From: an uncultured Gammaproteobacteria bacterium
GTDB lineage: Bacteria; Patescibacteriota; Patescibacteriia; Patescibacteriales; UBA12075
Length of the DNA: 64,000 nt
Assembly (NCBI GenBank): GCA_964459725.1
Contig: CAYWNT010000001.1
Span: 155,529 to 219,528 of the forward strand
Reading direction: 5' to 3'
Part shown: positions 19,159-61,618 of the stretch, one piece after another
How positions within the stretch are numbered: position 1 is the stretch's first letter
Layout: every line of letters starts with the position of its first letter
Translations under genes and position numbers: made by a program
Notes under the pieces: model-generated
What the model saw: only the letters and a program-made list of their open reading frames with translations
Told to the model about the DNA's origin: nothing
The model's database searches: none

Positions 19159-20643
19159 ATGGGAAAGCCGATCAGCGTTAAATTGGCACCAAGAGGCAAT
19201 GTGAATCCAATTAGATCAGCCTGTTTTGCGGCGTTGCTTTGCTATATGGCGAGAATTCCCAAGTGGGGGAAGCTGATAGATTGGTATAAAAAACTTTTTG
19301 GAACTGGGCACCATACAACATTTATGCACGCAGCTTCATATTTCACTTTTGTGATTGAGGGAATAAGCGTAGGGGATATTACTTTTGGTTTTCATCTGAC
19401 TTCGCCTTTTTACAACTCGAGTCAACGAAGTGGACGTTATTGTTCAGCAATGTTTGTTCGATATTTTAAAAAGGTAAGGAATACCTTAAAGATGTATTTG
19501 ATGAAACTATTCCCAGGCTATGAACCTGAGCTTGAAGCCGGAACGACACCGGATGCTTTTCCTGAAAAAAAGTTAGCAGAAATGGAGGAGTATATTAGAG
19601 CGTATTGGCCAGAGGTTGATGAAAAAGAATTATCTTCAATAATGGATTATGTCCGATTCGGTATCGGGGTGTTTCAGTCAAATATTATGGATGCCACTAA
19701 AGTGGCTACGGATTTTGCTAAAGAGGAAAGACCCTTTGTAAAAGCTGATTATTTGGCGGATACTGCTCCAAAGTTTGCCCAAGAGCAGCTTAGGAATTTT
19801 ATTCCTGTATTAGCTCCTACTGGGATGGTTCATACCGTAAATTTGATTACACTGGTTGCTCTTTATGAGTCTGCCTGGACTCCCGCTATGCGTCATGTGA
19901 CAGAGGAAATGGTGAGATTAGTTTTGGAAAAATATCCAGAATTGGCATCGATGTTTGACGAGAAAAACCGTAGAACAGATGATTGGGCTATGGAATTTGA
20001 CGGTGATGATAATTATTTAGCGAAAGCGCCTTGCGCTGTAGTTATAGATGTACGTAATGCTGATAGTCTCGTCTCTCCAAAATATTATGATCGTCATCCG
20101 GTAGATAAGTTGCATTTTAGACCAGAACTTATGGATAACGCGGTAGGACATATAATTTCAAGCGTGTCTTTGTCGGTGGCAACCATGGGTCAGGACCAGC
20201 GACATAGAACAATTCGTCGTGGTACGCCAATGTTTACAGGAGGATTTTATTTACCTCCAGTTGTCGCAGCTCTAGGTTTAGACAAGGAAGCAATGAGGAT
20301 GATTACAGAATGGCGTGCAATAGCCACTAAAGTTCCAGCATCCCTGGCTATGATATTAGCGCCTTATGGTGCTATGGCATCTTACGAAAAATCCGGATCA
20401 TTCCTTGCGGTTGATCATGAGCAGGGGAAGAGAACTTGTTGGTGTGCTCAAGAGGAGATATATTGGCTGGGAGTTCTGATTCGGAAAAAAATTGAAAACA
20501 AACTAGGCAAAGATCATTCGTTATTGCAGATTTTTGAACCACCTTGCTACAGAACGGGCAAGTGCGGTGAAGGTGATAGATATTGCGGTCGTGATTTGCG
20601 AGTAAGAGAAAAGGGAGACTATTTTCCGAGAAGAAAAATTTAA
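19159..20643 (+). CDS. ThyX-like (FAD-dependent thymidylate synthase family) protein, long and divergent
   Basis: GTGHHTTFMHAASYFTFVIEGISVGDITFGFHLTSPFYNSSQRSGRY parallels the ThyX core GHxSxxEHxxFTFxIxGxSR...RHR...SxxSxRY. The RHR is missing there; a QRHRT occurs about 250 aa later. Confidence 0.5.
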   Translation: MGKPISVKLAPRGNVNPIRSACFAALLCYMARIPKWGKLIDWYKKLFGTGHHTTFMHAASYFTFVIEGISVGDITFGFHLTSPFYNSSQRSGRYCSAMFVRYFKKVRNTLKMYLMKLFPGYEPELEAGTTPDAFPEKKLAEMEEYIRAYWPEVDEKELSSIMDYVRFGIGVFQSNIMDATKVATDFAKEERPFVKADYLADTAPKFAQEQLRNFIPVLAPTGMVHTVNLITLVALYESAWTPAMRHVTEEMVRLVLEKYPELASMFDEKNRRTDDWAMEFDGDDNYLAKAPCAVVIDVRNADSLVSPKYYDRHPVDKLHFRPELMDNAVGHIISSVSLSVATMGQDQRHRTIRRGTPMFTGGFYLPPVVAALGLDKEAMRMITEWRAIATKVPASLAMILAPYGAMASYEKSGSFLAVDHEQGKRTCWCAQEEIYWLGVLIRKKIENKLGKDHSLLQIFEPPCYRTGKCGEGDRYCGRDLRVREKGDYFPRRKI

Positions 20644-23771: not shown

Positions 23772-25590
23772 AAGCTATTTTCTCATGGAATTCAGCTTTT
23801 ACTGAGCGCGGTGTTATGCCGTGTTTTTTATTGTAAGCGATTTGTAGCTTACGGCGTTCTTTGGTTTTCTTGATTGCTTCTCGCATGGCAGGAGTTATTT
23901 TGTCACCGTACATTATTACTTTACCATTCTCGTGCCTGGCAACTCTTCCCATGGTCTGCATGAGAGATGTTTCGGTGCGCAGGAATCCGGCAATGTCAGC
24001 GTCAAGTATTGCTACCAGAGATGCCTCAGGAAGATCGAGACCTTCTCGAAGCAGGTTGATACCGACCAGGCAATCGTACTTTCCTTCTCGTAAATCGCGC
24101 AGGATTTCGACCCGCTCCAGGGTGGCAATGTCACTGTGCATATACTGAACATTGATCTTTTGTTCAGAGAGGTATTCAGATAATTCTTCAGCCATTCTTT
24201 TGGTTAGGGTTGTTACTAGAACTCGTTGGCCCTTTTCTGTTCTATCTTTAATTTCTGAAATTAGATCCTCGATTTGTCCCTCATTTGGTCTCACTTCGAT
24301 CTCTGGATCTAGAAGTCCAGTAGGCCTGATGATCTGCTTTGCTACTTGATCTGACTTTCCAAGTTCGTATTCACTTGGAGTTGCGCTTACGTATACTGCT
24401 TGGTTTATTTTTGAATTGAACTCTTGGAAATTTAAGGGTCTATTGTCTTTCGCGCTAGGAAGTCTAAAGCCAAAGTCTACTAGGGTTTGCTTTCGAGATT
24501 GGTCGCCAGCGTACATGCCTCTGACTTGAGGGAGGGTAACATGTGACTCATCTAAAATCATGAAAAAATCTTTTGGAAAAAAGTCGATAAGAGTTTCAGG
24601 GGGGAGTCCAGTGGGCCTTTCTGATAAATGACGTGAATAATTCTCTATGCCATTACAGTATCCAACCTCTCTCATCATCTCGAGATCATAGTTTGTTTTT
24701 CTCTCCAGTCTATCCATCTCTACTATCTTTTTTTCTTTTTTTAGTGTCTTTAATCTTTGACCCAGTTCTTTCTCGATGGAGTCCATTGCTTTTCTCATTC
24801 TGTCTTCAGGAGCCATAAAGTGTTTGGCCGGCAGGATCATTATTTCTTTTAATGGAATTGCATTTTTATTTCGAAGCTCACTAAGCCAGAATGCCTTCTT
24901 GGCGTCAGGTTTTATATTGTAGATATTTATATTCTCTACGGAGTCACCAAACATTCCTATTTTTACAATAGCTTCACCAGTAGCTAGGTGAATAAATACA
25001 TCTTCGCCTTTTACTCGGAATTGACCACGCAGAAAACTAGTATCATTTCTCTCATATTGAATTTTTATTAATTTGCGAAGGAGCTCATTTCTTTTTATTT
25101 TTTCGTTTACACGAAAAGTTTCACTCATTGATTCGTAATCCTTCCTACCTCCTAGTCCATAGATACATGACACGCTAGCCACGATCAAAACATCATCTCT
25201 GTTTAGTAGGGATTGGGTGGCAGCATGACGTAGTCGATCGATCTCTTCATTGATGGTGGCCTCTTTTTCAATATAGGTATCAGTTTGAGGAATGTACGCT
25301 TCTGGTTGGTAGTAGTCATAGTAAGACACGAAGTAGTGAACTGCATTATCCGGGAAAAACTTTTTGAATTCTCCATAGAGCTGCGCTGCTAATGTTTTGT
25401 TATGAGAAATAACCAGAGTAGGCTTCTGAATTTTCTCAATAATATTGGCCATAGTAAACGTTTTACCACTACCTGTGACACCGAGGAGGGTTTGGTTTTT
25501 GTAGCCTTCCTTGATTCCTTTTGCAAGTTTGCTTATAGCTTTTGGCTGATCTCCAGTGGGTTTGAATTTTGAATGTAGCTTGAATTTCAT
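23770..25590 (-). CDS. uvrB: excinuclease ABC subunit B
   Basis: [19 protein letters not shown] Walker A, DESH, and helicase motif [10 protein letters not shown]. Only 606 aa; it ends shortly after [10 protein letters not shown]. Confidence 0.95.
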
Positions 25591-25781
25591 ATCAGTATTT
25601 TAGTATAAAATTAGCTTATTGGCAATTTTAAGTAGTTCGACATTGATATTCTAAAATTTTTTTTGCTAACAAAAATTATCACAAAAAACACAATAAAAAT
25701 CTAAATGTTGTAAAATAGTGCGACCGCACAAATCTACAACAATTCTAAATTTTTGGATTGTGTGTAATTTAGGGGAAAATT

Positions 25782-25810
25782 TTGACATTAGAGTTGTTTT
25801 GGGTTAAAAT
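25782..25810 (+). promoter_or_regulatory. sigma70-like promoter (TTGACA-17-TAAAAT) for ileS
   Basis: TTGACA at 25782..25787 and TAAAAT at 25805..25810. Confidence 0.5.
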
Positions 25811-25850
25811 TACATTACAAAATAAGAAATAAATTTAGAATATTGTAATT

Positions 25851-28800
25851 ATGAATAATCAGAAAAATCAGCAGAAAAGGAGCTCTTTTCCGGACATGGA
25901 GAAGGAGGTTTTGGCTTTTTGGCAAAAGAATAATATTTTTGAAAAATCAGTTGAAAACCCACCCCACCCTGACGGGCATCCCTCCAAGGAGGGGACTCCG
26001 GTTGAGGATTATGTTTTTTATGATGGGCCTCCTTTTGCCACCGGACTACCTCATTATGGTCATATAGTCGGAACAATAATGAAAGATGTAGTGCCAAGAT
26101 ATTGGACAATGCAAGGCAAAAGAGTTGAGCGCAAATGGGGATGGGATTGTCATGGTCTTCCTATTGAGAATATTGTTGAGAAAGAGCTTGGATCAAAGAA
26201 GAAAAAAGACATTGAAGAGGGTGTAGGTGTTGCGAAGTTCAACGAGCTTTGTAGATCAAAGGTTTTAAGCTATGTTGATGACTGGGAAAAAGTAATAAAA
26301 AAAATTGGTCGATGGGCGGATATGAAGAATGCTTACAAAACAATGGACATTGAATACATGGAATCTGTCTGGTGGGTGTTTAAGGAACTCTGGGATAAGA
26401 ACTTGATTTACAAAGATCATAGATCTATGCATGTTTGTCCTAGATGTGAGACTACCTTGTCACAGTCAGAGGTGACAGAAGGGTATGCTGATATCAAGGA
26501 TTTGTCAGCGATTGCCAAGTTTGAGTTGGAGGATGATGGCCCTTCGGCAGGCTCAGGGCAAGCTAAAACTTTCGTTTTAGCCTGGACTACTACACCTTGG
26601 ACATTGATTGGAAATGTTGCCTTGGCGGTTGGTAAAGATATAGATTATGTAAAAGCTGGAATCAAGAATCAGGAATCAGGAGTTACAGATAATTATATAA
26701 TTGCTAAAGAGTTGGCAGAAAAAGTTTTTAAGGATAGGGAGTTTGATGTTGTTGAAGAATTTAAAGGAGAGAAATTGATTGAAAAAAAATATAAACCCCT
26801 ATTTGATTATTATTCATCTGATAAAAATCTGGAAAATAGAGAAAATGGATGGCAGATTTATGGAGCTGATTTTGTAACCACTGAGGAGGGCACAGGAGTA
26901 GTTCATATTGCTCCGGCTTTTGGTGAGGATGATATGAGATTGGGTCATGAAAAGAATTTACCTTTTGTGCAGCATTTAACTATAGATGGTAATTTCAAAG
27001 AGGAAGTAGCTGACTTTAAGGGACTCAATGTGAAGCCAAAGGATAATCACATGTCGACTGATATTGAGATTATCAAATACTTAGCTCATAATGGGTTACT
27101 TTTTCACAAGGAAAAATACGAGCATAGCTACCCGCATTGTTGGCGCTGTGATACCCCGCTTATCAACTATGCAACGAGTTCTTGGTTTGTAAATATTACA
27201 AAAATAAAAGATAGAGCCCTAGAGACTGCTAAAGATGTGAATTGGTCACCAGAACATATCAAGAGAGGTCGTTTTGGTAAGTGGCTGGAGGGTGCTCGTG
27301 ATTGGTCAATTTCTCGTCAGCGTTTTTGGGCTAGCGTAATGCCTATCTGGAAATGCGATAAATGTGCTGATACTAAAGTTTTTGGATCAGTTGAGGAGTT
27401 GAGTGAGCATTTTGGAAATCCAAATAAATTATATCTAGTAAGACACGGGGAGGCGGAACAAAATGTTGCGCATATTCTAAATTCTGACTTAAATAACAAT
27501 CATTATCATTTAACAGAAAATGGGCGAGAGCAAGTTGAAAAAACAGCTAAAGAACTAAGGGATAAAAAAGTTGATTATATATTTTGTTCTCCATTTTTAA
27601 GAACAAAGGAGACGGCAGAAATCATATCAAAAGATCTAGGTGTAGAAATAATTTTTGATGATAGATTAAGTGAATTTGGTGTTGGTGATTTTGAGGGGAA
27701 AAATCAAGAAGATTTTATGAGGGTTTTTTCTAATTGGCCGGAAGAGAATATAGATTTAAGAAAAAAACATGGTGTAGAACTTGAAAAAGAGGCAGAAGAA
27801 AGATTTTCTAGTTTCTTGAATGAATTAAATGAAAAACACAAGAACAAGAATATAGTTATTGTTTCTCATGGAGATCCTCTTCAGTTTATGTATAGCCTGT
27901 TACAGGGAGTCGATAGGATAAAAACTTATAGTAGTGAGTATTACTCAGAAAAGGGAAAATCTAAGTTTTCTTATTCAAGGCTTGTCGATCTCCATAAACA
28001 TATAGTTGATGAAATTAAATTTGGGTGTGATAAGTGCGATGGCGAGATGGTTAGAGTTCCTGATGTGTTGGATACTTGGTTTGATTCTGGATCAATGCCA
28101 TATGCGCAGATGCATTATCCTTTTGAAAATAAAGAAAAGTTTGATAATAATTTCCCGGCAGAATTTATAGCTGAAGGATCTGATCAGACCAGGGCCTGGT
28201 TTTACTATATGCACATGATTGCTAATGGAATTAAGGATAAAAATGCTTATAAAAATGTGATTGTAAATGGTATAGTGCTCGCTGAAGATGGAAAAAAGAT
28301 GAGCAAAAAGCTTCAGAATTATCCGGATCCAATGGAGTTACTTGATAAATACGGGGCTGATGCACTTCGTTATTATCTCCTTACATCTCCAGTGATGTTG
28401 GCTGATAATTTGAATTTTTCTGAAGACGGAGTAAAGGAGTCTCTTAGGAAGGTAAATATGATTCTTTGGAATGTGGTGAGATTTTATGATTTATTTGAAG
28501 ATAAGTCGAAAGTTTATAAAACCGAAAGACCAAATAGTGAGAATATCTTAGATCAATGGATACTGGCAAGACTAGATGAGTTGATTGTTGAGGTGGGAGA
28601 GAATATGGAGAAATATAATTTGCCAAAAGCAACAAGGCCTATAGTTGAGTTTATTGATGATTTATCTACTTGGTATATCAGAAGAAGTCGTGACCGATTT
28701 AAATCAGAACATGAGAAGGACAAAGAAAGTGCTTTGGCGACAACCGGGCATCTGTTAGTCGAGCTTTCAAAGGTGATGGCACCATTTACACCATTTATTG

Positions 28801-29402
28801 CGGAGCAAGTATGGCAAAAAATAATTGGAAATGATTTTAAAGATGAGAATAAATCAGTTCATTTGGAAAGTTTTCCTAAGGAAGAAAAAGGACATGAAGT
28901 ATCCGAGGTGAAAATAATTGAAAGAATGAGTATGGCCCGAAAGATTGTTGAGATGGGTCTGGCAAAACGTGATGAAGTTGGAATTAAAGTAAGACAACCT
29001 CTTAACGAATTACGAATTACAAATTTCGAATTAAGGGATGAATATGTTGACTTGATTAAGGATGAAATGAATGTGAAATCCGTTGTTAGTGAAAAAGGCG
29101 AGGGTGATATGTCGGTTGAGCTGGATACTGAGATTACACCTGAACTAAAATTGGAAGGGGTGAAAAGAGAATTGGTTAGATATATTAACGCCCAGAGAAA
29201 AAAACAGGATTTGTCTATTCGTGATTTTGTGGTTATTGAATGGCAAGGAGAAAAAGAAATCAAAAAGGCGTTTGATAAATTTAGTGAAGAAATAAAGAAA
29301 GAGACTTTATCTCTGGATATTGTGGAGAAAGAAAAGGTAGATGATGGAGTGAGTGTAAAAATAGAAGGAGAAGAATTAATTTTAAAAATTAATAAAAAAT
29401 AA
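25851..29402 (+). CDS. ileS: isoleucine--tRNA ligase (type 2) with internal domain insertion
   Basis: PHYGH (HIGH), KMSKK (KMSKS), the WTTTPWTL editing-domain block, and DWSISRQRFW. 1183 aa. Confidence 0.95.
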   Translation: MNNQKNQQKRSSFPDMEKEVLAFWQKNNIFEKSVENPPHPDGHPSKEGTPVEDYVFYDGPPFATGLPHYGHIVGTIMKDVVPRYWTMQGKRVERKWGWDCHGLPIENIVEKELGSKKKKDIEEGVGVAKFNELCRSKVLSYVDDWEKVIKKIGRWADMKNAYKTMDIEYMESVWWVFKELWDKNLIYKDHRSMHVCPRCETTLSQSEVTEGYADIKDLSAIAKFELEDDGPSAGSGQAKTFVLAWTTTPWTLIGNVALAVGKDIDYVKAGIKNQESGVTDNYIIAKELAEKVFKDREFDVVEEFKGEKLIEKKYKPLFDYYSSDKNLENRENGWQIYGADFVTTEEGTGVVHIAPAFGEDDMRLGHEKNLPFVQHLTIDGNFKEEVADFKGLNVKPKDNHMSTDIEIIKYLAHNGLLFHKEKYEHSYPHCWRCDTPLINYATSSWFVNITKIKDRALETAKDVNWSPEHIKRGRFGKWLEGARDWSISRQRFWASVMPIWKCDKCADTKVFGSVEELSEHFGNPNKLYLVRHGEAEQNVAHILNSDLNNNHYHLTENGREQVEKTAKELRDKKVDYIFCSPFLRTKETAEIISKDLGVEIIFDDRLSEFGVGDFEGKNQEDFMRVFSNWPEENIDLRKKHGVELEKEAEERFSSFLNELNEKHKNKNIVIVSHGDPLQFMYSLLQGVDRIKTYSSEYYSEKGKSKFSYSRLVDLHKHIVDEIKFGCDKCDGEMVRVPDVLDTWFDSGSMPYAQMHYPFENKEKFDNNFPAEFIAEGSDQTRAWFYYMHMIANGIKDKNAYKNVIVNGIVLAEDGKKMSKKLQNYPDPMELLDKYGADALRYYLLTSPVMLADNLNFSEDGVKESLRKVNMILWNVVRFYDLFEDKSKVYKTERPNSENILDQWILARLDELIVEVGENMEKYNLPKATRPIVEFIDDLSTWYIRRSRDRFKSEHEKDKESALATTGHLLVELSKVMAPFTPFIAEQVWQKIIGNDFKDENKSVHLESFPKEEKGHEVSEVKIIERMSMARKIVEMGLAKRDEVGIKVRQPLNELRITNFELRDEYVDLIKDEMNVKSVVSEKGEGDMSVELDTEITPELKLEGVKRELVRYINAQRKKQDLSIRDFVVIEWQGEKEIKKAFDKFSEEIKKETLSLDIVEKEKVDDGVSVKIEGEELILKINKK
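25957..25995 (+). repeat. GC-rich bipartite hairpin element, copy 1 (in frame in ileS)
   Basis: ACCCACCCCACCCTGACGGGCATCCCTCCAAGGAGGGGA. Related copies lie at 46922..46960 and 59451..59495. Confidence 0.85.
27426..27986 (+). other. histidine-phosphatase (PGAM-type) domain inserted within IleRS
   Basis: LYLVRHGEAEQN...LTENGREQ...FCSPFLRTKETAEII...IVIVSHGDPLQ lies between ...SVEELSEHFGNPN and DLHKHIVDEIKFGCDKCDG. Confidence 0.8.
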
Positions 29403-41987: not shown

Positions 41988-43349
41988 ATGACTACAGAAA
42001 AGAAGCAAAATAAAATAGAACTACTAGCTCCAGCAGGCAATCTGGAGAAGATGAAAACAGCTTTGGCCTTTGGGGCGGATGCTGTGTATGTTGGTATTCC
42101 TGATTTTTCTCTGCGAGTGCGGATTAATGATTTTGATATAGAGAAAATAAAAGAAGCGACAAAATATTGCCATGAGAAGGGTAAAAAAATATATGTAACA
42201 ATAAATATATTTGCTCATAATCGTCACATTGAAAAACTTCCAGCATACATTGAGGAGTTGAAAAAAATTGGAGTGGACGCTCTTATTATTTCTGACCCTG
42301 GTGTGATTGATGTTGTTAAAGAAGTTTGGCCAGAGGCGGCAATCCACCTCTCAACTCAGGCTAATGCCACGAATTGGAGGAGTGTTAAATTTTGGCATAG
42401 CCAGGGCGTTGAGAGAGTAATACTTGGCAGAGAAACAACTCTTGAAGAGATAAAAGAGATTCATGAGCGTGTTCCTGAAGTAGAGCTTGAAACTTTTGTG
42501 CATGGAGCAATGTGCATGGCCTATTCTGGTAGGTGTTTCTTGTCTAAGCATTTTGTAGATAGGTCTGGTAATCTGGGGGATTGTGTTCAGCCGTGTAGAT
42601 GGCGGTATAATTCTAGAAAACAGACGACAGACGACAGACGACAGGATGAGAGATTTTTTATAACTGAAGAAAGTCGTCCTGATCAGCCTTTGGAGATTGT
42701 TGAGGAGGAGCATGGGTCTTATATTTTGAATTCTAAAGATCTTAATTTACTTAAACATGTAAAAGAATTGGTTGATGCTGGTGTGGTTAGTTTGAAAATT
42801 GAGGGGCGTGCTAAGAGTGTTTATTATCAGGCAGTTGTTAATGGAATATACTCACACATAACATCCTCCTATTGCACGGCGGACAGGCATAACTCACAAC
42901 CCATAACACAAAAAGAGATTAATTATTTATATGAGGAGCTTGAAAACAAGATTACGCATAGGGGGTATACTACTGGGTTTATTCTTGGGGAGAGGGCTGA
43001 TCAGGATGTTGAAAATACACATAAGGTTATTGATTGGGAGTTTTGTGGGGTCGTCGTTGACGACGAGTCAAAAGTCCAGCCCCGTCATTCGACAGGGCAA
43101 GAGTCTATAAAGTCCAAAGTGCTTAATAATCAGATTTTAGTGAAGGTTCATAATGTTATTAAGCGAGGGGATGAGGTGGAGATTGTTGTGCCAAAATATG
43201 ATATAATAAAGATGAAGGTTGATAAGATGTATGAATTAAATGGAGAAGAAATAGATGAGGCGCATGGAGGGCAGGAGAAGATGGTTTTGCTTGAAGTAGA
43301 CGTTGATAGGGAAGTTCCTGAATATTCTGTTTTGAGACGCAAATTGTAA
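41988..43349 (+). CDS. peptidase U32 family protein
   Basis: LLAPAGN, ETFVHGAMCMAYSGRCFLS, LKIEGRAKS. Confidence 0.85.
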   Translation: MTTEKKQNKIELLAPAGNLEKMKTALAFGADAVYVGIPDFSLRVRINDFDIEKIKEATKYCHEKGKKIYVTINIFAHNRHIEKLPAYIEELKKIGVDALIISDPGVIDVVKEVWPEAAIHLSTQANATNWRSVKFWHSQGVERVILGRETTLEEIKEIHERVPEVELETFVHGAMCMAYSGRCFLSKHFVDRSGNLGDCVQPCRWRYNSRKQTTDDRRQDERFFITEESRPDQPLEIVEEEHGSYILNSKDLNLLKHVKELVDAGVVSLKIEGRAKSVYYQAVVNGIYSHITSSYCTADRHNSQPITQKEINYLYEELENKITHRGYTTGFILGERADQDVENTHKVIDWEFCGVVVDDESKVQPRHSTGQESIKSKVLNNQILVKVHNVIKRGDEVEIVVPKYDIIKMKVDKMYELNGEEIDEAHGGQEKMVLLEVDVDREVPEYSVLRRKL

Positions 43350-43355
43350 TAAATT

Positions 43356-43447
43356 CACATAACATGTAACACATAACATGCAACAAAATTCAAAAAGCGA
43401 AGCTTTTTGATGGTCATTGTTATGAGTTATGTGTTATGAGTTATGTG
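43356..43447. repeat. long composite inverted repeat: CACATAAC-type 14-mer arms around a CAAAAAGC-GAA-GCTTTTTG hairpin
   Basis: Left arm 43356..43384, core 43391..43409, right arm 43415..43447. The arms are imperfect reverse complements. Confidence 0.85.
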
Positions 43448-45554: not shown

Positions 45555-46247
45555 ATGAGCGAAAAACAGATAAGTCAGATGATGGGAAGTTTGGTAGCGA
45601 ATCAGAGATTTTTTCAAAATTTAGACAAAGAAAAGCGTCAATGGATTCTTCAAAATCCAAAAGATGCGATTGCTTTGTTTTGTGAGGCGGTGAATCAAAA
45701 ATTTGATGATGAAACAAATATTGTTAAGGCTATTAATGATATATTCATCAAAAATAAAATAAATATCACTTCTTTTCCAATTTGGAAAACAATTAAGCTC
45801 GGTACAGGTCTCAAGACGGCAGGTGATTTTTGTAAGGTTCTGGAAGAAAAGAGCAATGAAGTGAGCGATTGGGCTAAGGATATTATGAATAAGCCAGCGT
45901 TTATTGTTGCAGAGGAAGAGACTGAGATCGACCTGGTTGTAGCCAGTGGAGAAGATCTTGGCTTCAACAAGGCAGTTCCCAGGAAAGAGATATTTGAACG
46001 TGCCGCAAAGCACGACCTATATCCAGTTCCAGCTGAACTTGGTCCTCAGCTTAGAGCCCAATATCAAGATCAACCCAAGGGGGAATATCTTCTAATAGCT
46101 ATGGAGCCTATTGAAGATTCCGATGGTGATCTGGACATCTTTCGCGTGATTCATGACGATGACGGTCTCTGGTTGAACACGGACTATGACGATCCTGACT
46201 ATTCCTGGGGTCCTGATAGCCGTTGGGTCTTCGCCCTTCGCAAGTAA
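45555..46247 (+). CDS. hypothetical protein (230 aa)
   Basis: AAAGGAG SD and a strong terminator at 46286..46325. The C-terminus is acidic and Trp-containing. No family recognised. Confidence 0.7.
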   Translation: MSEKQISQMMGSLVANQRFFQNLDKEKRQWILQNPKDAIALFCEAVNQKFDDETNIVKAINDIFIKNKINITSFPIWKTIKLGTGLKTAGDFCKVLEEKSNEVSDWAKDIMNKPAFIVAEEETEIDLVVASGEDLGFNKAVPRKEIFERAAKHDLYPVPAELGPQLRAQYQDQPKGEYLLIAMEPIEDSDGDLDIFRVIHDDDGLWLNTDYDDPDYSWGPDSRWVFALRK

Positions 46248-46285
46248 TCTTGATTTCTTGTGTTCTCTTTGGCACTTGAAATCTC

Positions 46286-46325
46286 AGCCCCTTTAACTCT
46301 TAAAAAAGTTGAAGGGGCTTTTTAT
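46286..46325 (+). terminator. rho-independent terminator
   Basis: AGCCCCTTTAACT / AGTTGAAGGGGCT 13-bp stem followed by a T-run. Confidence 0.85.
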
Positions 46326-46347
46326 TTTATTAAATATTTGTTAAACT

Positions 46348-47466
46348 ATGTTTATGAAATTAATCGAATTAAACAAAGAAAAATTAGATAATTTTTTAGC
46401 TAATCAGGACAAATCTCAGTTTTTGCAGTCTTTTGAGTGGGGAGAATTTCAGGAAAAGACTGGTTTGGAAGTTTTTAGATATGGCGTGGAAGAAAATGAA
46501 GAATTAGTGGCAGTTGTTTCTTTGATCAAGAAAAATCTTGGAATTGGGAAGAGTTATTTTTATGCGCCGAGAGGAGTCGTGTTTAGTCATAAAGTCATAA
46601 AGTCAAAAGTCGCCCGCCTGCCGGACGGGCAGGAAAGTGTTTATAATTTTTTATTTAATGAGATAGAAAAAATTGCTAAAAAGGAAAATTGTATATTTCT
46701 CCGTTTTGAACCGCACAGAAAGTCAAAAGTCGCCCGCCTGCCGGACGGGCAGGAAAGTCGAAAGTCGAAAGTTATTAAAACTATCGATTTGCAGCCGGCG
46801 AAAACTTTGATGTTGGATTTGGGAAAATCAGAGGAGGAACTTTTGCAAGACATGCATCAGAAGACTCGGTATAATATTCGACTTGCGGAGAAAAAGGGCG
46901 TTGAGGTGGTAGAGGTTGATTACCCACCCCGGCCTGATGGCCACCCCTCCAGAGAGGGGAATTTATTTGAGGAGTTTTGGAAATTGATGAGTCAGACTGG
47001 AGGTCGTGATGGATTTCGGCTACATTCTAAAAATTATTACAAAAAAATGCTAGATGAGTCGAAAGTCTATAAAGTCGAAAGTCGAAAGTCTGAAGTTGAT
47101 TTAAGTATAAAATTGTTTCTGGCGAAGTATCAGGGGGAGGTGATTGCTGGAAATATTATTTCTTTTTTTGGAGATACTGTGACCTATATGCATGGTGCAT
47201 CATCTAATGAGTATAGAAATGTGATGGCTCCGTATATTCTTCAATGGGAAGTGATAAAGGCGGCAAAAGAAAAGGGGTATAAATATTATGACTTTTTTGG
47301 GATTGATAAAGATAAGTGGCCGGGAGTGACTAGATTCAAAGAAGGATTTTGCGTGAAAAATCTGGAAAAATGCCAAGTGACTTATCCAGGTACATTCGAT
47401 TTGGTGTTTAGTAAAGTGTGGTATAATGCATATAACATCCTTCGAAGAATTCGAAGAGTGTTATAA
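46348..47466 (+). CDS. FemAB-family peptidoglycan interpeptide-bridge aminoacyltransferase
   Basis: FLQSFEWGEFQ, YAPRG, TRYNIRLAEKKG, YMHGASSNEYRNVMAPYILQWE, YDFFGI. It contains several in-frame repeat insertions. Confidence 0.8.
   Translation: MFMKLIELNKEKLDNFLANQDKSQFLQSFEWGEFQEKTGLEVFRYGVEENEELVAVVSLIKKNLGIGKSYFYAPRGVVFSHKVIKSKVARLPDGQESVYNFLFNEIEKIAKKENCIFLRFEPHRKSKVARLPDGQESRKSKVIKTIDLQPAKTLMLDLGKSEEELLQDMHQKTRYNIRLAEKKGVEVVEVDYPPRPDGHPSREGNLFEEFWKLMSQTGGRDGFRLHSKNYYKKMLDESKVYKVESRKSEVDLSIKLFLAKYQGEVIAGNIISFFGDTVTYMHGASSNEYRNVMAPYILQWEVIKAAKEKGYKYYDFFGIDKDKWPGVTRFKEGFCVKNLEKCQVTYPGTFDLVFSKVWYNAYNILRRIRRVL
46600..46638 (+). repeat. 39-nt AAAGTC + GC-hairpin element, copy 1
   Basis: AAGTCAAAAGTCGCCCGCCTGCCGGACGGGCAGGAAAGT, identical to 46720..46758. 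Confidence 0.95.
46720..46758 (+). repeat. 39-nt AAAGTC + GC-hairpin element, copy 2
   Basis: Exact copy, offset by exactly 120 nt (40 codons) from copy 1. Confidence 0.95.
46922..46960 (+). repeat. GC-rich bipartite hairpin element, copy 2 (in frame in the FemAB-family gene)
   Basis: ACCCACCCCGGCCTGATGGCCACCCCTCCAGAGAGGGGA. Confidence 0.85.
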
Positions 47467-52200: not shown

Positions 52201-52774
52201 AGAGATAAAAGAAGAGCTTATAAAAGCAGGCCTATCAGAAGATGGAAAGGTGGCCTTGATTGACGGTAAGACAGGGGAAAAATTTGATAACAAAGTTACT
52301 GTGGGATACAAGTACATGTTAAAACTGAACCACATGATTGAAGATAAGATTCACCAGAGATCAATTGGACCATACTCACTTATTACTCAACAGCCTTTGG
52401 GTGGTAAAGCTCAGTTTGGTGGACAGAGATTTGGAGAAATGGAAGTGTGGGCATTGGAGGCTTATGGAGCTGCCCATTGTTTGCAGGAAATTCTAACTAT
52501 TAAATCTGATGATGTGCCAGGAAGAAGCAAGGCTTATGAATCAATTATTAAGGGAGAGGAGATTAGAAAGTTAAACGTACCTGAATCATTTAACGTTTTG
52601 GTTAGAGAAATGAAAGGTCTTTGTTTGGATGTTGAATTACTTGGAGGAGATGATCAACCGGTAAATCTGGAGTTAGACGAGGAAGATGTTGAAACTGTTC
52701 CGGCTGAAAATGATGACAAAGGAGATAATGATGAAAAAAAGGAAGAAGAGAGCAGTGAAGACTCTGAAAAATAA
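49289..52774 (+). CDS. rpoB: DNA-directed RNA polymerase subunit beta
   Basis: Collinear conserved RpoB blocks, for example GRHGNKGVISKI and QRFGEMEVWALEAYGAA. The start is moved to ATG 49289; the track TTG 49244 lies inside a leader hairpin. Confidence 0.95.
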   Translation: MFYSKIPNYKGAEDRKYFIGSHASVQMPDLIESQKDSYKWFLKEGLADLFDEISPVTDFIGRDLELYFKDFVLDEPKFNEVESRKKNITYEAPLRVKVVLTNKRTEQTEEQEVFLGDFPLMTDNGTFIINGIERVVVSQLIRSAGVIFSSEFLKGKKYYGAKIIPNRGAWLEIETDANKVIWVRIDRKRKVAVTSLLRAFGISDDEEIIDLFKDVDVKADGEDGYIDATIAKDIAKNEAEGLKEVYKRIRPGDLATTENARQLIYSMFFRFDRYDFDRVGRYKLNRKFGFDIPNNKETRILRKEDLISIIKEVIRLNITQEDEDDIDHLGNRRVRAIGELIQNKFRVGLARMERIIKDRMSTADINEINPGKLINARPVISVVKEFFMSSQLSQFMDQINPLAELEHKRRLSAMGPGGLTRERAGFDVRDVHTTHYGRICPIATPEGPNIGLIGHLASHAKLNKYGFLEAPYRKVINSVPNKKEETEGHVASEDVCIIKNDKKGKVIVKGGETINKKKASEIEDKIDVDTMIPVKPVVTSEIHYLDAFEDEKFVTTAFTTPIDEDGHFLVNKCEGRVQGTPGTVEVNKVDYLGVAANQIISIATSLIPFMEHDDGQRALMGTNMQRQAVPLVSPDSPIVGTGMEGNAAVNSGHVIVAEDNGEVTVVDGDNIEVKYKGDKTVKYELTKFLRSNASTCINQKPIIDVGDKIKKGQSLTDGPSIDNGELALGKNVLVAFMTWEGYNFEDAIIVSERMVSDDVFSSIHIEDYTIDIRDTKLGEEMITSDIPNISEEKLKNLDDRGIIRIGAEVSSGDILVGKITPKGETELSAEEKLLRAIFGEKAKDVRDSSLYLEHGEHGKVVDVKIFSREDGDKLSAGVLQSVQVTVANLRKIQVGDKMAGRHGNKGVISKIVPVEDMPHMEDGTPIDVILSPLGIISRMNLGQLLETHLGFAAKKLGYKAATPVLNGISEEEIKEELIKAGLSEDGKVALIDGKTGEKFDNKVTVGYKYMLKLNHMIEDKIHQRSIGPYSLITQQPLGGKAQFGGQRFGEMEVWALEAYGAAHCLQEILTIKSDDVPGRSKAYESIIKGEEIRKLNVPESFNVLVREMKGLCLDVELLGGDDQPVNLELDEEDVETVPAENDDKGDNDEKKEEESSEDSEK

Positions 52775-52785
52775 TTCTTAAATTA

Positions 52786-52878
52786 TAATTACTAATTTCT
52801 AACATAAATCCTAATTTCTAATTACTAATTTCTAAAATATTTAGAAATTGAAATTTAGAAACTTAGAAATTTAATTAC
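52786..52878. repeat. rpoB-rpoC spacer built from 3 direct TAATTTCTA and 3 inverted TAGAAAYT units
   Basis: Direct copies start at 52793, 52812 and 52826. Inverted copies start at 52842, 52856 and 52864. The central 10-bp hairpin is at 52827..52849. Confidence 0.9.
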
Positions 52879-56880: not shown

Positions 56881-57043
56881 TAGTGTAATTTGTATAGTAT
56901 TAAAAACTCTAAGCACTAAATTATAAACTCTAAACAAAACTTAAATTCAAATTTTCAAAACTGGAAATTGTAAACAAATTTTAAACATTTGGATTTTTGG
57001 TATTGGTATTTGTTTGTAATTTCGGCATTAGAATTTGGGATTT

Positions 57044-58211: not shown

Positions 58212-58268
58212 AATAAAATTTTTATATAAACTTTCAACTTTACGGACTTTACAGACTTTCGACTATTT

Positions 58269-59450: not shown

Positions 59451-59495
59451 ACCCACCCCGCCAGGCTTCGCCTGCCCGCCCCTCCGAGGAGGGGA
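59451..59495. repeat. GC-rich bipartite hairpin element, copy 3 (intergenic)
   Basis: ACCCACCCCGCCAGGCTTCGCCTGCCCGCCCCTCCGAGGAGGGGA. Its ACCCACCCC also pairs with GGGGTGGGT at 59408..59416. Confidence 0.85.
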
Positions 59496-59510
59496 CTTTC
59501 TTGGTGGTTC

Positions 59511-60831: not shown

Positions 60832-61224
60832 TTACTCCTTGGAGTTTTTATCAATTATTGATGAAAATATTTTTACCAGTTCGAATGATTCTTGAATTAA
60901 TGGTTGGATATCTTGTGAAAAATTTTGGTTTCCATGTAGTAATAATTCAAGCCAATACTTACTCTCTTTCGATTCTTTTCTTGAGATTCTAAGTCTGTGT
61001 AAAAAATCTTTTTTGCTAATTGCTTCGTTTGCCTCTCTGTAGTTTGCTCCTACGGAGCCTGTTGATCTTATAAATTGTTTTTTGTATTCAATGGTTTCGA
61101 TCGTATTGGGAATAATTTTTGACAAATTGAAACAATTCTTTGCAAAATTCAAAGTTCTTTCTTCGAGATCAAAAACTTTATTATTTGAATTATTGGTCAT
61201 TGCTTGGTGATTAATATTTGGCAA
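60832..61224 (-). CDS. four-helix-bundle protein (23S rRNA intervening-sequence protein family)
   Basis: Pattern QFIRSTGSVGANYREANEAISKKDFLHRLRISRKESKESKYWLELL. Confidence 0.8.
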   Translation of the reverse strand: MPNINHQAMTNNSNNKVFDLEERTLNFAKNCFNLSKIIPNTIETIEYKKQFIRSTGSVGANYREANEAISKKDFLHRLRISRKESKESKYWLELLLHGNQNFSQDIQPLIQESFELVKIFSSIIDKNSKE

Positions 61225-61570: not shown

Positions 61571-61618
61571 AAGTCAGAAAACTTTTGACTTTATGGACTT
61601 TATAGACTTTGGACTGTC
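61571..61618. repeat. GACTTT (reverse complement AAAGTC) repeat tract with leading hairpin
   Basis: AAGTCAGAAAACTTTTGACTT hairpin, then GACTTTATG, GACTTTATA, GACTTTG, GACTGTC. Confidence 0.85.

Follow-up and report, generated by a model that had tools for sequence, protein, structure and literature searches.

Two identical 21-nt hairpin cassettes in heptanucleotide arrays of a FemAB-family gene of Patescibacteria

The stretch analysed here, hereafter the window, comprises 64,000 nucleotides of contig CAYWNT010000001.1 (assembly GCA_964459725.1, Patescibacteriota) and encodes a FemAB/FemX-family peptidoglycan bridge-forming aminoacyl transferase whose gene carries, in frame, two identical copies of a 21-nt GC-rich hairpin cassette, each embedded in AAAGTC-type heptamers. 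The likely true start of this open reading frame (ORF) is the ATG at 46354. Family membership follows from the Pfam profiles (FemAB 1.5e-47, 162.8 bits against a cut-off of 24; Acetyltransf_6 1.3e-13), the two GNAT-like halves and the conserved core of the product. The protein has 6093 homologues, whose names assign the host to Patescibacteria/Parcubacteria, the best named ones being FemA/FemB-family proteins of Patescibacteria, and its PDB matches are 6SNR (1.4e-17; S. aureus FmhB/FemX) and 1LRZ. Gene order at the locus is U32 peptidase, RuvA, two extra genes, FemAB, Mur ligase, rpoB and rpoC, and this synteny (RuvA, Mur ligase, rpoB, rpoC) is kept even in distant relatives. The columns that are invariant in an alignment of 21 FemAB sequences (alignment A1), which the window protein shares by definition, are present, and the ORF is open with no disruption, which contradicts a pseudogene. 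As far as these sequence features tell, the enzyme most likely still works, in keeping with what the original prediction had presumed. The gene and the parts of its two insertion sites, a and b, are as follows.

46348..47466, + strand: gene of the FemAB/FemX-family peptidoglycan bridge-forming aminoacyl transferase, an intact ORF of 372 aa
46585..46611, + strand: left arm of site a, an AAAGTC-type array (AGTCATAA x3.5, then AAAGTCA AAAGTC); Tandem Repeats Finder (TRF) period 8, 95% matches
46612..46632, + strand: copy 1, the 21-nt GC hairpin cassette GCCCGCCTGCCGGACGGGCAG, 7 codons read as ARLPDGQ; junction AAAAGTC^GAAAGT
46719..46731, + strand: left arm of site b, AAAGTCA AAAGTC, read from the sequence
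46732..46752, + strand: copy 2, the identical 21-nt cassette GCCCGCCTGCCGGACGGGCAG; junction AAAAGTC^GAAAGT, as for copy 1
46753..46773, + strand: right arm of site b, GAAAGTC GAAAGTC GAAAGTT; TRF period 7, 100% matches

An exact 39-nt repeat had been predicted here. The 39-mer AAGTCAAAAGTCGCCCGCCTGCCGGACGGGCAGGAAAGT indeed occurs at 46600-46638 and 46720-46758 on the + strand with 0 mismatches, and the identity of the two copies reaches one base further left (46599/46719), giving 40 nt. The 64-kb window contains no third match, even when 3 mismatches are allowed, and the chance expectation is 0.00 in 100 dinucleotide shuffles. The offset of 120 nt equals 40 codons. ORF 46348..47466 contains the two copies, each translated as KSKVARLPDGQES, and the 81 nt separating them are FemAB-like coding sequence (VYNFLFNEIEKIAKKENCIFLRFEPHR) that encodes conserved core residues; the in-frame arrangement was thus described correctly. 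The hairpin is also real, with a CCTGCC/GGCAGG stem and a 5-nt loop, GGACG. The 7-nt periodicity proposed for the flanks is found to the right of copy 2 (GAAAGTC x2.9 in TRF) but not to the left of copy 1, where the period is 8 nt (AGTCATAA x3.5).

The 39/40-mer is a composite rather than one unit, made of a 21-nt cassette set in phase within AAAGTCN heptanucleotide arrays. Cutting out copy 2 leaves a perfect in-phase array, AAAGTCA AAAGTCG AAAGTCG AAAGTCG AAAGTT. A tandem duplication of a 120-nt block is ruled out, since the sequences that follow the two copies differ. A GTGTTTA heptamer that resembles a target duplication around the whole site-a insert is best taken as a coincidence, as its two occurrences are 58 nt apart and removal of the span breaks the frame.

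Both copies are present in four independent assemblies. Two JGI contigs from different samples encode an identical 372-aa protein and match the window without gaps, at 99.92% over 14.5 kb and 99.95% over 12.8 kb, and a 204-kb ENA contig has both copies too, although in copy 1 a single SNP in the left heptamer gives K-A-K where the window reads K-S-K. It is therefore hardly credible that an assembler made the repeat, whether as a repeat-induced duplication or as a chimera. A related contig (L001) does jump from ~85-88% to ~99.9% identity exactly at cassette b, as a chimera would, but this oddity is a property of L001 and not of the window, and the four assemblies, from different samples, hold both copies together with the unique sequence between and around them. 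The ORF also remains open, and the intervening 81 nt encode core residues.

Contig L001 (positions 1-1040) aligns to 46274-46730 of the window at ~85-88% identity upstream of cassette b, with no homology further upstream, and is ~99.9% identical to the window for 10.7 kb downstream of it, the switch falling within the cassette-b array. Its site a holds an unrelated AATTTTC array and its site b reads AAAGTCG AAAGTC. The switch is either a recombination breakpoint or the join of a chimeric contig. Because of this change of lineage (or chimeric join) at cassette b itself, the dating of copy 2 from L001 was abandoned.

Orthologues free of the cassette indicate what was inserted. Site a of the window reads ...AAAGTCATAAAGTCAAAAGTC[GCCCGCCTGCCGGACGGGCAG]GAAAGTGTTTAT (alignment A4). 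The P0004 orthologue (locus L265) has ...AAAGTTATAAAATCAAAAGTT joined directly to GAAAGCGTTTAT, and the P0003 orthologue (L266) has AAAAGTCAAAAGTCAAAAGTC joined directly to AAAAGTT. Both lack exactly the 21 nt, with no target duplication and no array units lost. These orthologues, 57-60% identical, nevertheless carry an AAAGTY array at site a, so the array appears to be older than the cassette. Parsimony suggests that the window lineage gained a clean 21-nt insertion (7 codons, ARLPDGQ) at this site. The identity of the copies and the orthologues without the site-a cassette agree with the recent origin proposed originally. The proposal that a composite repeat had been inserted stands for the 21-nt cassette and falls for its flanks at site a, which were already in the clade. 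At site b the arrays consist of AAAGTC in the window, CCAATTT in P0004 and TAAAATC in P0003, and these differences suggest that heptamer arrays turn over fast.

Other genes provide further filled and empty sites. The U32 peptidase gene of the same locus contains three relevant features.

43065..43120, + strand: AAAGTC array holding a different 21-nt hairpin, CAGCCCCGTCATTCGACAGGG (43077-43097), read from the sequence
42863..42886, + strand: 24-nt GC-richer cassette in a CATAAC-type array, missing from the L265 orthologue
42619-42644: ACAGACG array

The hairpin at 43077-43097 has an RNA fold z of -3.4, and a 77%-identical U32 orthologue in L265 lacks exactly its 21 nt. In a pair of Falkowbacteria-type FemAB genes (P0032/P0033, 89% identical DNA), site b has one indel only, a 30-nt double hairpin, TCAGCCAAAGGCTGA+TCCGCCTCGGGCGGA (2x15 nt), which lies inside an ATCCATT array and has no duplication (alignment A3). 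FemAB site a, the U32 peptidase gene and the Falkowbacteria pair thus give three independent empty sites. A filled site with other heptamers is found in L244 (P0009), where AAAATCA arrays surround CCTGCCCACCGGACAGGCAGG at site b. More widely, loops a and b of most of 120 FemAB homologues look like translations of heptamers (NFQFSIS, NYELRIT, KSKIKNQ, FKIQNSK), and by eye about one in eight of these homologues has a central peptide derived from a GC hairpin (LPAGRQG, SAGRQG, PAGEAG, LPEADPPLAE, LPDGQAC).

The protein itself tolerates four repeat-derived inserts. In alignment A1 it shares a core of ~320 residues with its homologues and is longer in four places, and both copies appear as extra sequence in alignments A1 and A4, as expected of inserts. 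Besides the two cassette sites there are two more.

46922..46960, + strand: third insert, from another GC-rich family, CCCACCCC-GGCCTGATGGCC-A-CCCCTCCAGAGAGGGG, peptide YPPRPDGHPSREG; found in a scan for GC islands
47057..47097, + strand: fourth insert, an AAAGTC array without a cassette, ESKVYKVESRKSEV; found by TRF, with 5 units in a cluster scan

The third insert folds into two hairpins (-18.9 kcal/mol, z -2.9) and is a gap in homologues; against 6SNR, it and copy 1 align to gaps. In an AlphaFold2 model of the protein (mean predicted local distance difference test score, pLDDT, 81.9; predicted template modelling score 0.81), pLDDT falls below 50 at residues 87-91 (copy 1), 129-138 (copy 2) and 243-248 (the array at 47057-47097), and block 191-200, which corresponds to the element at 46922-46960, has a mean of 59. 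All four inserts are therefore predicted to be disordered loops between confidently modelled elements, and the model places both copies in loops of the surface, where they had been expected.

We favour, with a probability of roughly 0.6, the reading that the cassette is a very small mobile or copyable hairpin element living in heptamer arrays, comparable to the small dispersed repeats (SDRs) of Nostoc, that its second copy arose by re-insertion or conversion, and that it is a passenger. Hairpin elements of 15-30 nt would be copied into heptamer arrays either by a trans-acting mechanism that recognises the hairpin or by short-homology templated repair from another array already holding a cassette, and the arrays would be the preferred target of cassettes or the place where they survive. 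The lack of target duplication would fit a hairpin-specific HUH (histidine-hydrophobic-histidine) enzyme acting in trans. The second FemAB copy would be recent, having come either from a second insertion, at the same motif 120 nt distant, or from conversion, for which the shared heptamer flanks (13 + 6 nt) would have provided the homology; since the 40-nt identity consists of the cassette plus flanks that were already similar, it fits re-insertion and gene conversion equally. Within genes, only inserts with lengths divisible by three and lying in disordered surface loops would survive. The observed lengths (21, 24 and 30 nt) are all multiples of 3, the GC hairpin is stop-free in all six frames, and the ARLPDGQ frame, with its Pro-Asp-Gly turn, would be the one best tolerated in loops; together, these properties may explain why coding copies persist. 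Most likely, the inserts are passengers and not functional parts of the enzyme. Translational bypass, considered separately, is unnecessary, since all inserts are stop-free multiples of 3.

A purely local history is possible, though we doubt it. One ancient cassette would have been copied within the gene, either through ectopic gene conversion or through templated repair from one AAAGTC array to another, with no mobility involved. This would suit two copies that lie 120 nt apart in one gene and have 13 nt of left and 6 nt of right flank in common, the window without a third copy, and the absence of a transposase among the 49 larger ORFs. It leaves unexplained the first copy, and also the presence of the hairpin core, a 23-mer, in at least 43 unrelated families and in other heptamer arrays without flank homology. 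Moreover, the shared flanks at site a predate the cassette, so they are no evidence of co-transfer.

The mobile-cassette reading draws on the spread of this core. The exact 23-mer CGCCCGCCTGCCGGACGGGCAGG was found at no fewer than 120 metagenome loci, on contigs of 34-71% GC and in many flank contexts. Among the contexts listed, it stands beside TCCGCC-N4-GGCGGA hairpins, within longer CCTGCC/GGCAGG palindromes, in GTAG-headed palindromes (L156, L159, L196) and in other heptamer arrays, with GTAGGGAA heads in a few foreign contexts. Deletion of the 21-mer leaves a continuous heptamer phase in 11 of the 121 core matches listed, against 0.4% of control positions, and the heptamers around the core elsewhere include GATTGCG, GAGTTCG and GGCAACG. 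On contigs of at most 50% GC, a stop-free frame of 600 nt or more surrounds 60% of the listed cores, compared with 70% of random positions. The 50 host ORFs (at least 600 nt) fall into at least 43 unrelated families, including uroporphyrinogen decarboxylase (URO-D), diaminopimelate decarboxylase, methionine synthase (MetH) and peptidase M20. The reading frame is ARLPDGQ, as in the window FemAB gene, in 22 of 43 host families, and the core is sense in 25 families and antisense in 18. Viral contigs contain the core in 8 stretches and a close variant in 10, against 0 for a reversed-sequence control of the same composition and fold.

Several exact copies of the 23-mer are found on the viral or proviral contigs L247, L248, L250 and L253 (IMG/VR UViG 2820306284; ~40-43% GC). 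Just 40 nt separates two of the cores on these contigs, and one core lies within a longer CCTGCC/GGCAGG palindrome.

A bolder extension is that the 21-nt hairpin ranks among the smallest mobile DNA elements, being pasted in trans (by an HUH enzyme or from an RNA template) into arrays and moving horizontally between phyla. Horizontal movement would account for one 23-mer recurring in dozens of unrelated genes as well as in viral contigs; the heptamer arrays would serve as landing pads, and gains or losses of 7 nt would bring inserts back into frame. We regard this as rather unlikely. A DNA-uptake sequence was also considered for the core and rejected, its density being far too low (2 copies per 64 kb).

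The frame bias raises the question of function. The cassette could have been kept for its ARLPDGQ turn, as an RNA hairpin at which ribosomes pause or a regulator binds, or as an antisense terminator, and the strong ARLPDGQ bias (22/43 families), the terminator-like form of both copies on the minus strand (an 8-pair stem followed by ACTTTTGACT), the GGA in the hairpin loop and the conservation of the exact 23-mer across very different contigs all lend this some appeal. Yet the closest orthologues keep the gene without the cassettes, the hosts are disordered loops of unrelated enzymes, the occurrence of both orientations (25 sense, 18 antisense families) speaks against a strand-specific RNA role, the hairpin is of modest stability, and there is no match to an Rfam family: at the gathering score nothing was found in the window, and around the FemAB gene only chance-level matches appeared at E values up to 5. 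Purifying selection on passengers would also predict an equal frame bias. A retained function is thus improbable.

Several observations nonetheless weigh against our preferred reading of a copyable passenger cassette. At the empty sites, insertion is separated from precise deletion by parsimony only. The window, which is part of the genome, has 49 larger ORFs, and no transposase, REP-associated tyrosine transposase (RAYT) or reverse transcriptase was detected among them. The hairpin, at ~-14 kcal/mol, exceeds shuffled sequence in stability only modestly (z -1.0 to -1.4) and can pair in two registers owing to a tetranucleotide periodicity (CCTG CCTG); the hairpin variants differ at positions that are paired in one of these two registers. 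Within the 64 kb covered, copy number is low and dispersal was not seen, with 2 core copies, both in one gene. Only ~9% of the listed core occurrences lie within heptamer arrays, and most listed cores are beside other GC hairpins or in longer palindromes. The listing of at least 120 loci is itself biased by the query, which included the leading CG, and this affects which arrays are visible; some matches in high-GC contigs may be due to chance. The U32 cassette CAGCCCCGTCATTCGACAGGG was found neither in viral contigs nor in fetched loci beyond the same genome, and as a candidate for a second widespread core it was therefore dismissed.

Heptamer arrays are themselves common in the window. AAAGTC clusters of at least 3 units number 5, against 0.38 per shuffle, and TRF detects several further period-7 arrays, both genic and intergenic, so that head-to-tail 7-nt units exceed chance at several loci. 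Two AAAGTC arrays are intergenic.

58229..58258, - strand: AAAGTC array of 7-9-nt units without a cassette; cluster scan
61580..61609, - strand: AAAGTC array directly after the stop codon of a pyruvate:ferredoxin oxidoreductase (POR) gamma-type gene; cluster scan

A string nearly identical to the second of these occurs in a metagenome-assembled genome (MAG) of Patescibacteria (L013) and in a gammaproteobacterial MAG (L007). A scan for arrays (AAAGTCNAAAGTC...AAAGTCNAAAGT, one genome per species) listed matches in Bacteroidota, Cyanobacteria, Acidobacteria, Chloroflexi, Nitrospirae, Gammaproteobacteria, Verrucomicrobia, several Patescibacteria and an archaeon. The matches listed are mostly plain (AAAGTCN)n, some with central GC hairpins; in a Nitrospirae locus (L065), AAAGTCC x3-CCTGCCTTGCCGGCAGGCAGG-CAAAGTCC places a GC hairpin within the array.

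These arrays also bear on whether the FemAB gene is a contingency locus, in which heptamer slippage, promoted by the hairpin, switches the gene on and off (phase variation). Each 7-nt unit shifts the frame by one, a cell-wall enzyme is a plausible target, and heptanucleotide repeats, the commonest long simple repeats in prokaryotes, have been linked to slippage (PMC4679880, citing Mrazek 2007). Against this, the arrays are short (2-5 units), no length variants occur among the four assemblies (12.8-14.5 kb compared), and similar arrays are present in housekeeping genes (U32 peptidase, aminoacyl-tRNA synthetase). Phase variation is thus very improbable here.

Further repeats occur in the window. 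A second GC-rich family consists of CCCACCCC, a variable small hairpin and then CCCCTCC-N4-GGAGGGG, and it is found at 25958-25997, 46922-46960 and 59451-59498, twice in ORFs and once between genes. SPLxxxGG peptides at loop c of many FemAB homologues suggest that this family, too, may be widespread. In the spacer that follows the U32 peptidase gene (43356-43445), inverted CACATAAC-type heptamer arrays around an AT-rich terminator-like hairpin, AAAAAGCGAAGCTTTTT, form one long composite palindrome. Period-7/8 arrays, namely TAATTTC x7.4, ATTTAGAA x4.6 and AAACTCT x4.6, fill the spacer between rpoB and rpoC and the sequence following rpoC (52768-52873 and 56904-56935).

Directly upstream of the FemAB gene, at 45555-46247 (+), lies a 230-aa ORF without a Pfam match that is missing from L001 and from the distant syntenic loci L244, L245, L246, L265 and L266, where RuvA directly precedes FemAB; the position is a variable spot adjoining the repeat-rich FemAB gene. 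Elsewhere, a 1183-aa class-I aminoacyl-tRNA synthetase (tRNA-synt_1, Anticodon_1, DUF5915) is encoded at 25851-29402 (+), with a His_Phos_1 domain (residues 527-688, 1.4e-36) that splits the halves of its catalytic domain; the GC element at 25958 lies in the same gene, as do period-7 arrays (26658, 29005). A ThyX-like ORF of 494 aa at 19159-20640 (+) is covered by the Thy1 profile over residues 17-261 only (1e-12), and a gene of the '23S rRNA-intervening sequence protein' family (PF05635, 8e-17) at 60835-61224 (-) lies between genes for pyruvate:ferredoxin oxidoreductase subunits. GC skew on the + strand is uniform and very strong over positions 1-57000 (+0.16 to +0.39 per 2-kb window), with a dip to +0.01 at 24001-26000, where uvrB is on the minus strand. 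Nearly all genes in 1-57000 are on the + strand, and the skew is ~0 at 58-62 kb, where genes change strand. A similar strand disparity is reported for a Microgenomates genome (PMC7143001).

The FemAB case is one instance of a widespread, little-described class, hairpin micro-cassettes in heptamer arrays, and for this class the event is ordinary. If the preferred reading is correct, very small mobile elements, described once (Nostoc, 2008), would represent a general process and not a cyanobacterial curiosity, and would provide a steady source of loop insertions in the proteins of streamlined, uncultivated bacteria. This would explain why the same enzyme loops of the candidate phyla radiation (CPR) differ so wildly between lineages. 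Under the bolder version with horizontal movement between phyla, loops of essential enzymes in streamlined CPR genomes would be a continuously rewritten substrate. Such loops mislead alignments and gene-calling, and such repeats may account for chimeric contigs or recombination breakpoints. Natural pairs of filled and empty alleles offer a route to inferring the mechanism from metagenomes.

Searches of the available literature for comparable inserts in Patescibacteria/CPR found none, and several systems from other organisms invite comparison. Fungal mitochondrial GC clusters, double-hairpin elements and 'byp' elements are short GC-rich hairpins that spread in AT-rich genomes, including coding regions. 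The likeness lies in GC-rich hairpins that reach coding regions of an AT-rich genome; the mitochondrial elements differ in their organelle setting and in having no known link to heptamer arrays, and byps are skipped by the ribosome, whereas the cassettes described here are in frame and stop-free, so that ordinary translation is enough. Fungal mitochondrial GC hairpins and the repetitive hairpin elements of sponge mtDNA are treated in passages of PMC2800124 and PMC7218506.

Concerning the arrays, short scattered 7-nt arrays, sometimes in ORFs, are also typical of cyanobacterial short tandemly repeated repetitive (STRR) sequences, long simple sequence repeats (LSSRs) and the Beggiatoaceae TAACTGA repeats (PMC4679880), and, as with these, one unit (here AAAGTCN) is common to distant phyla. 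TAACTGA repeats are mainly found just upstream of start codons and are peripheral when in ORFs (PMC4679880), whereas those of the window occupy internal enzyme loops and form the setting for hairpin cassettes. The window heptamer arrays belong with the repeats of the STRR/LSSR/TAACTGA type.

Repetitive extragenic palindromes (REPs), with bacterial interspersed mosaic elements (BIMEs) and REP doublets forming hairpins (REPINs), are likewise GC-rich imperfect palindromes of 20-40 nt, dispersed and mutually clustered (PMC3733652, PMC3116915, PMC6006769). Insertion by an HUH enzyme would leave no target duplication, and in metagenomes the core is sometimes set in a palindrome headed by GTAG (L156, L159, L196). 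REPs are, however, extragenic by definition and present in tens to hundreds of copies, whereas the elements here are few and intragenic, with both copies inside an ORF. The tetranucleotide tag of REPs, GTAG or CGTC at one palindrome end, is also lacking, as the cassette ends are GCCC.../...GCAG and CGTC occurs only in the reverse-strand loop, and no RAYT is encoded by the 49 window ORFs examined, which cover part of the genome.

Rickettsia palindromic elements (RPEs), reportedly described by Ogata et al. in 2000, are said to be selfish elements that reside in frame in protein genes, at surface-exposed positions of proteins that still work. Context for them is given in a passage of PMC1779305. 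Here, too, insertion is in frame, in a protein gene and at tolerated surface positions of an apparently working enzyme. RPEs differ in being 100-150 nt long, against 21 nt here, restricted to Rickettsia and without a known tie to heptamer arrays.

In Nostoc punctiforme and relatives, Elhai et al. (2008) reportedly described SDR1-8, which are said to be 21-27 nt long, hairpin-forming and often located in tandem heptamers, with recent mobility deduced from filled and empty sites of close relatives; an RNA intermediate is also said to have been proposed. The cassettes resemble them in size (21-30 nt here, exactly 21 nt at FemAB site a and in the U32 gene, with relatives of 24 nt and 2x15 nt), in forming hairpins without encoding a protein, in being embedded in tandem heptamers (in phase within AAAGTCN arrays at 46612, 46732 and 43077), in nested or adjacent arrangement with other small repeats, and in presence or absence between relatives, here at three empty sites with the direction set by parsimony. 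Nostoc small dispersed repeats are mentioned in passages of PMC5861425, PMC3116915 and PMC2884548, the first of which reports them as confined to a subgroup of heterocystous cyanobacteria and not found outside Nostocaceae. The SDRs are thus cyanobacterial, whereas the present cassettes are found in Patescibacteria, with the core in contigs of many compositions, and are GC-rich in an AT-rich genome and in frame within essential protein genes. A further SDR trait, many dispersed copies in one genome, is not seen in the 64 kb covered, which hold 2 copies in a single gene. Judged by description, the SDRs of Nostoc punctiforme appear to be the closest match of the FemAB cassette.

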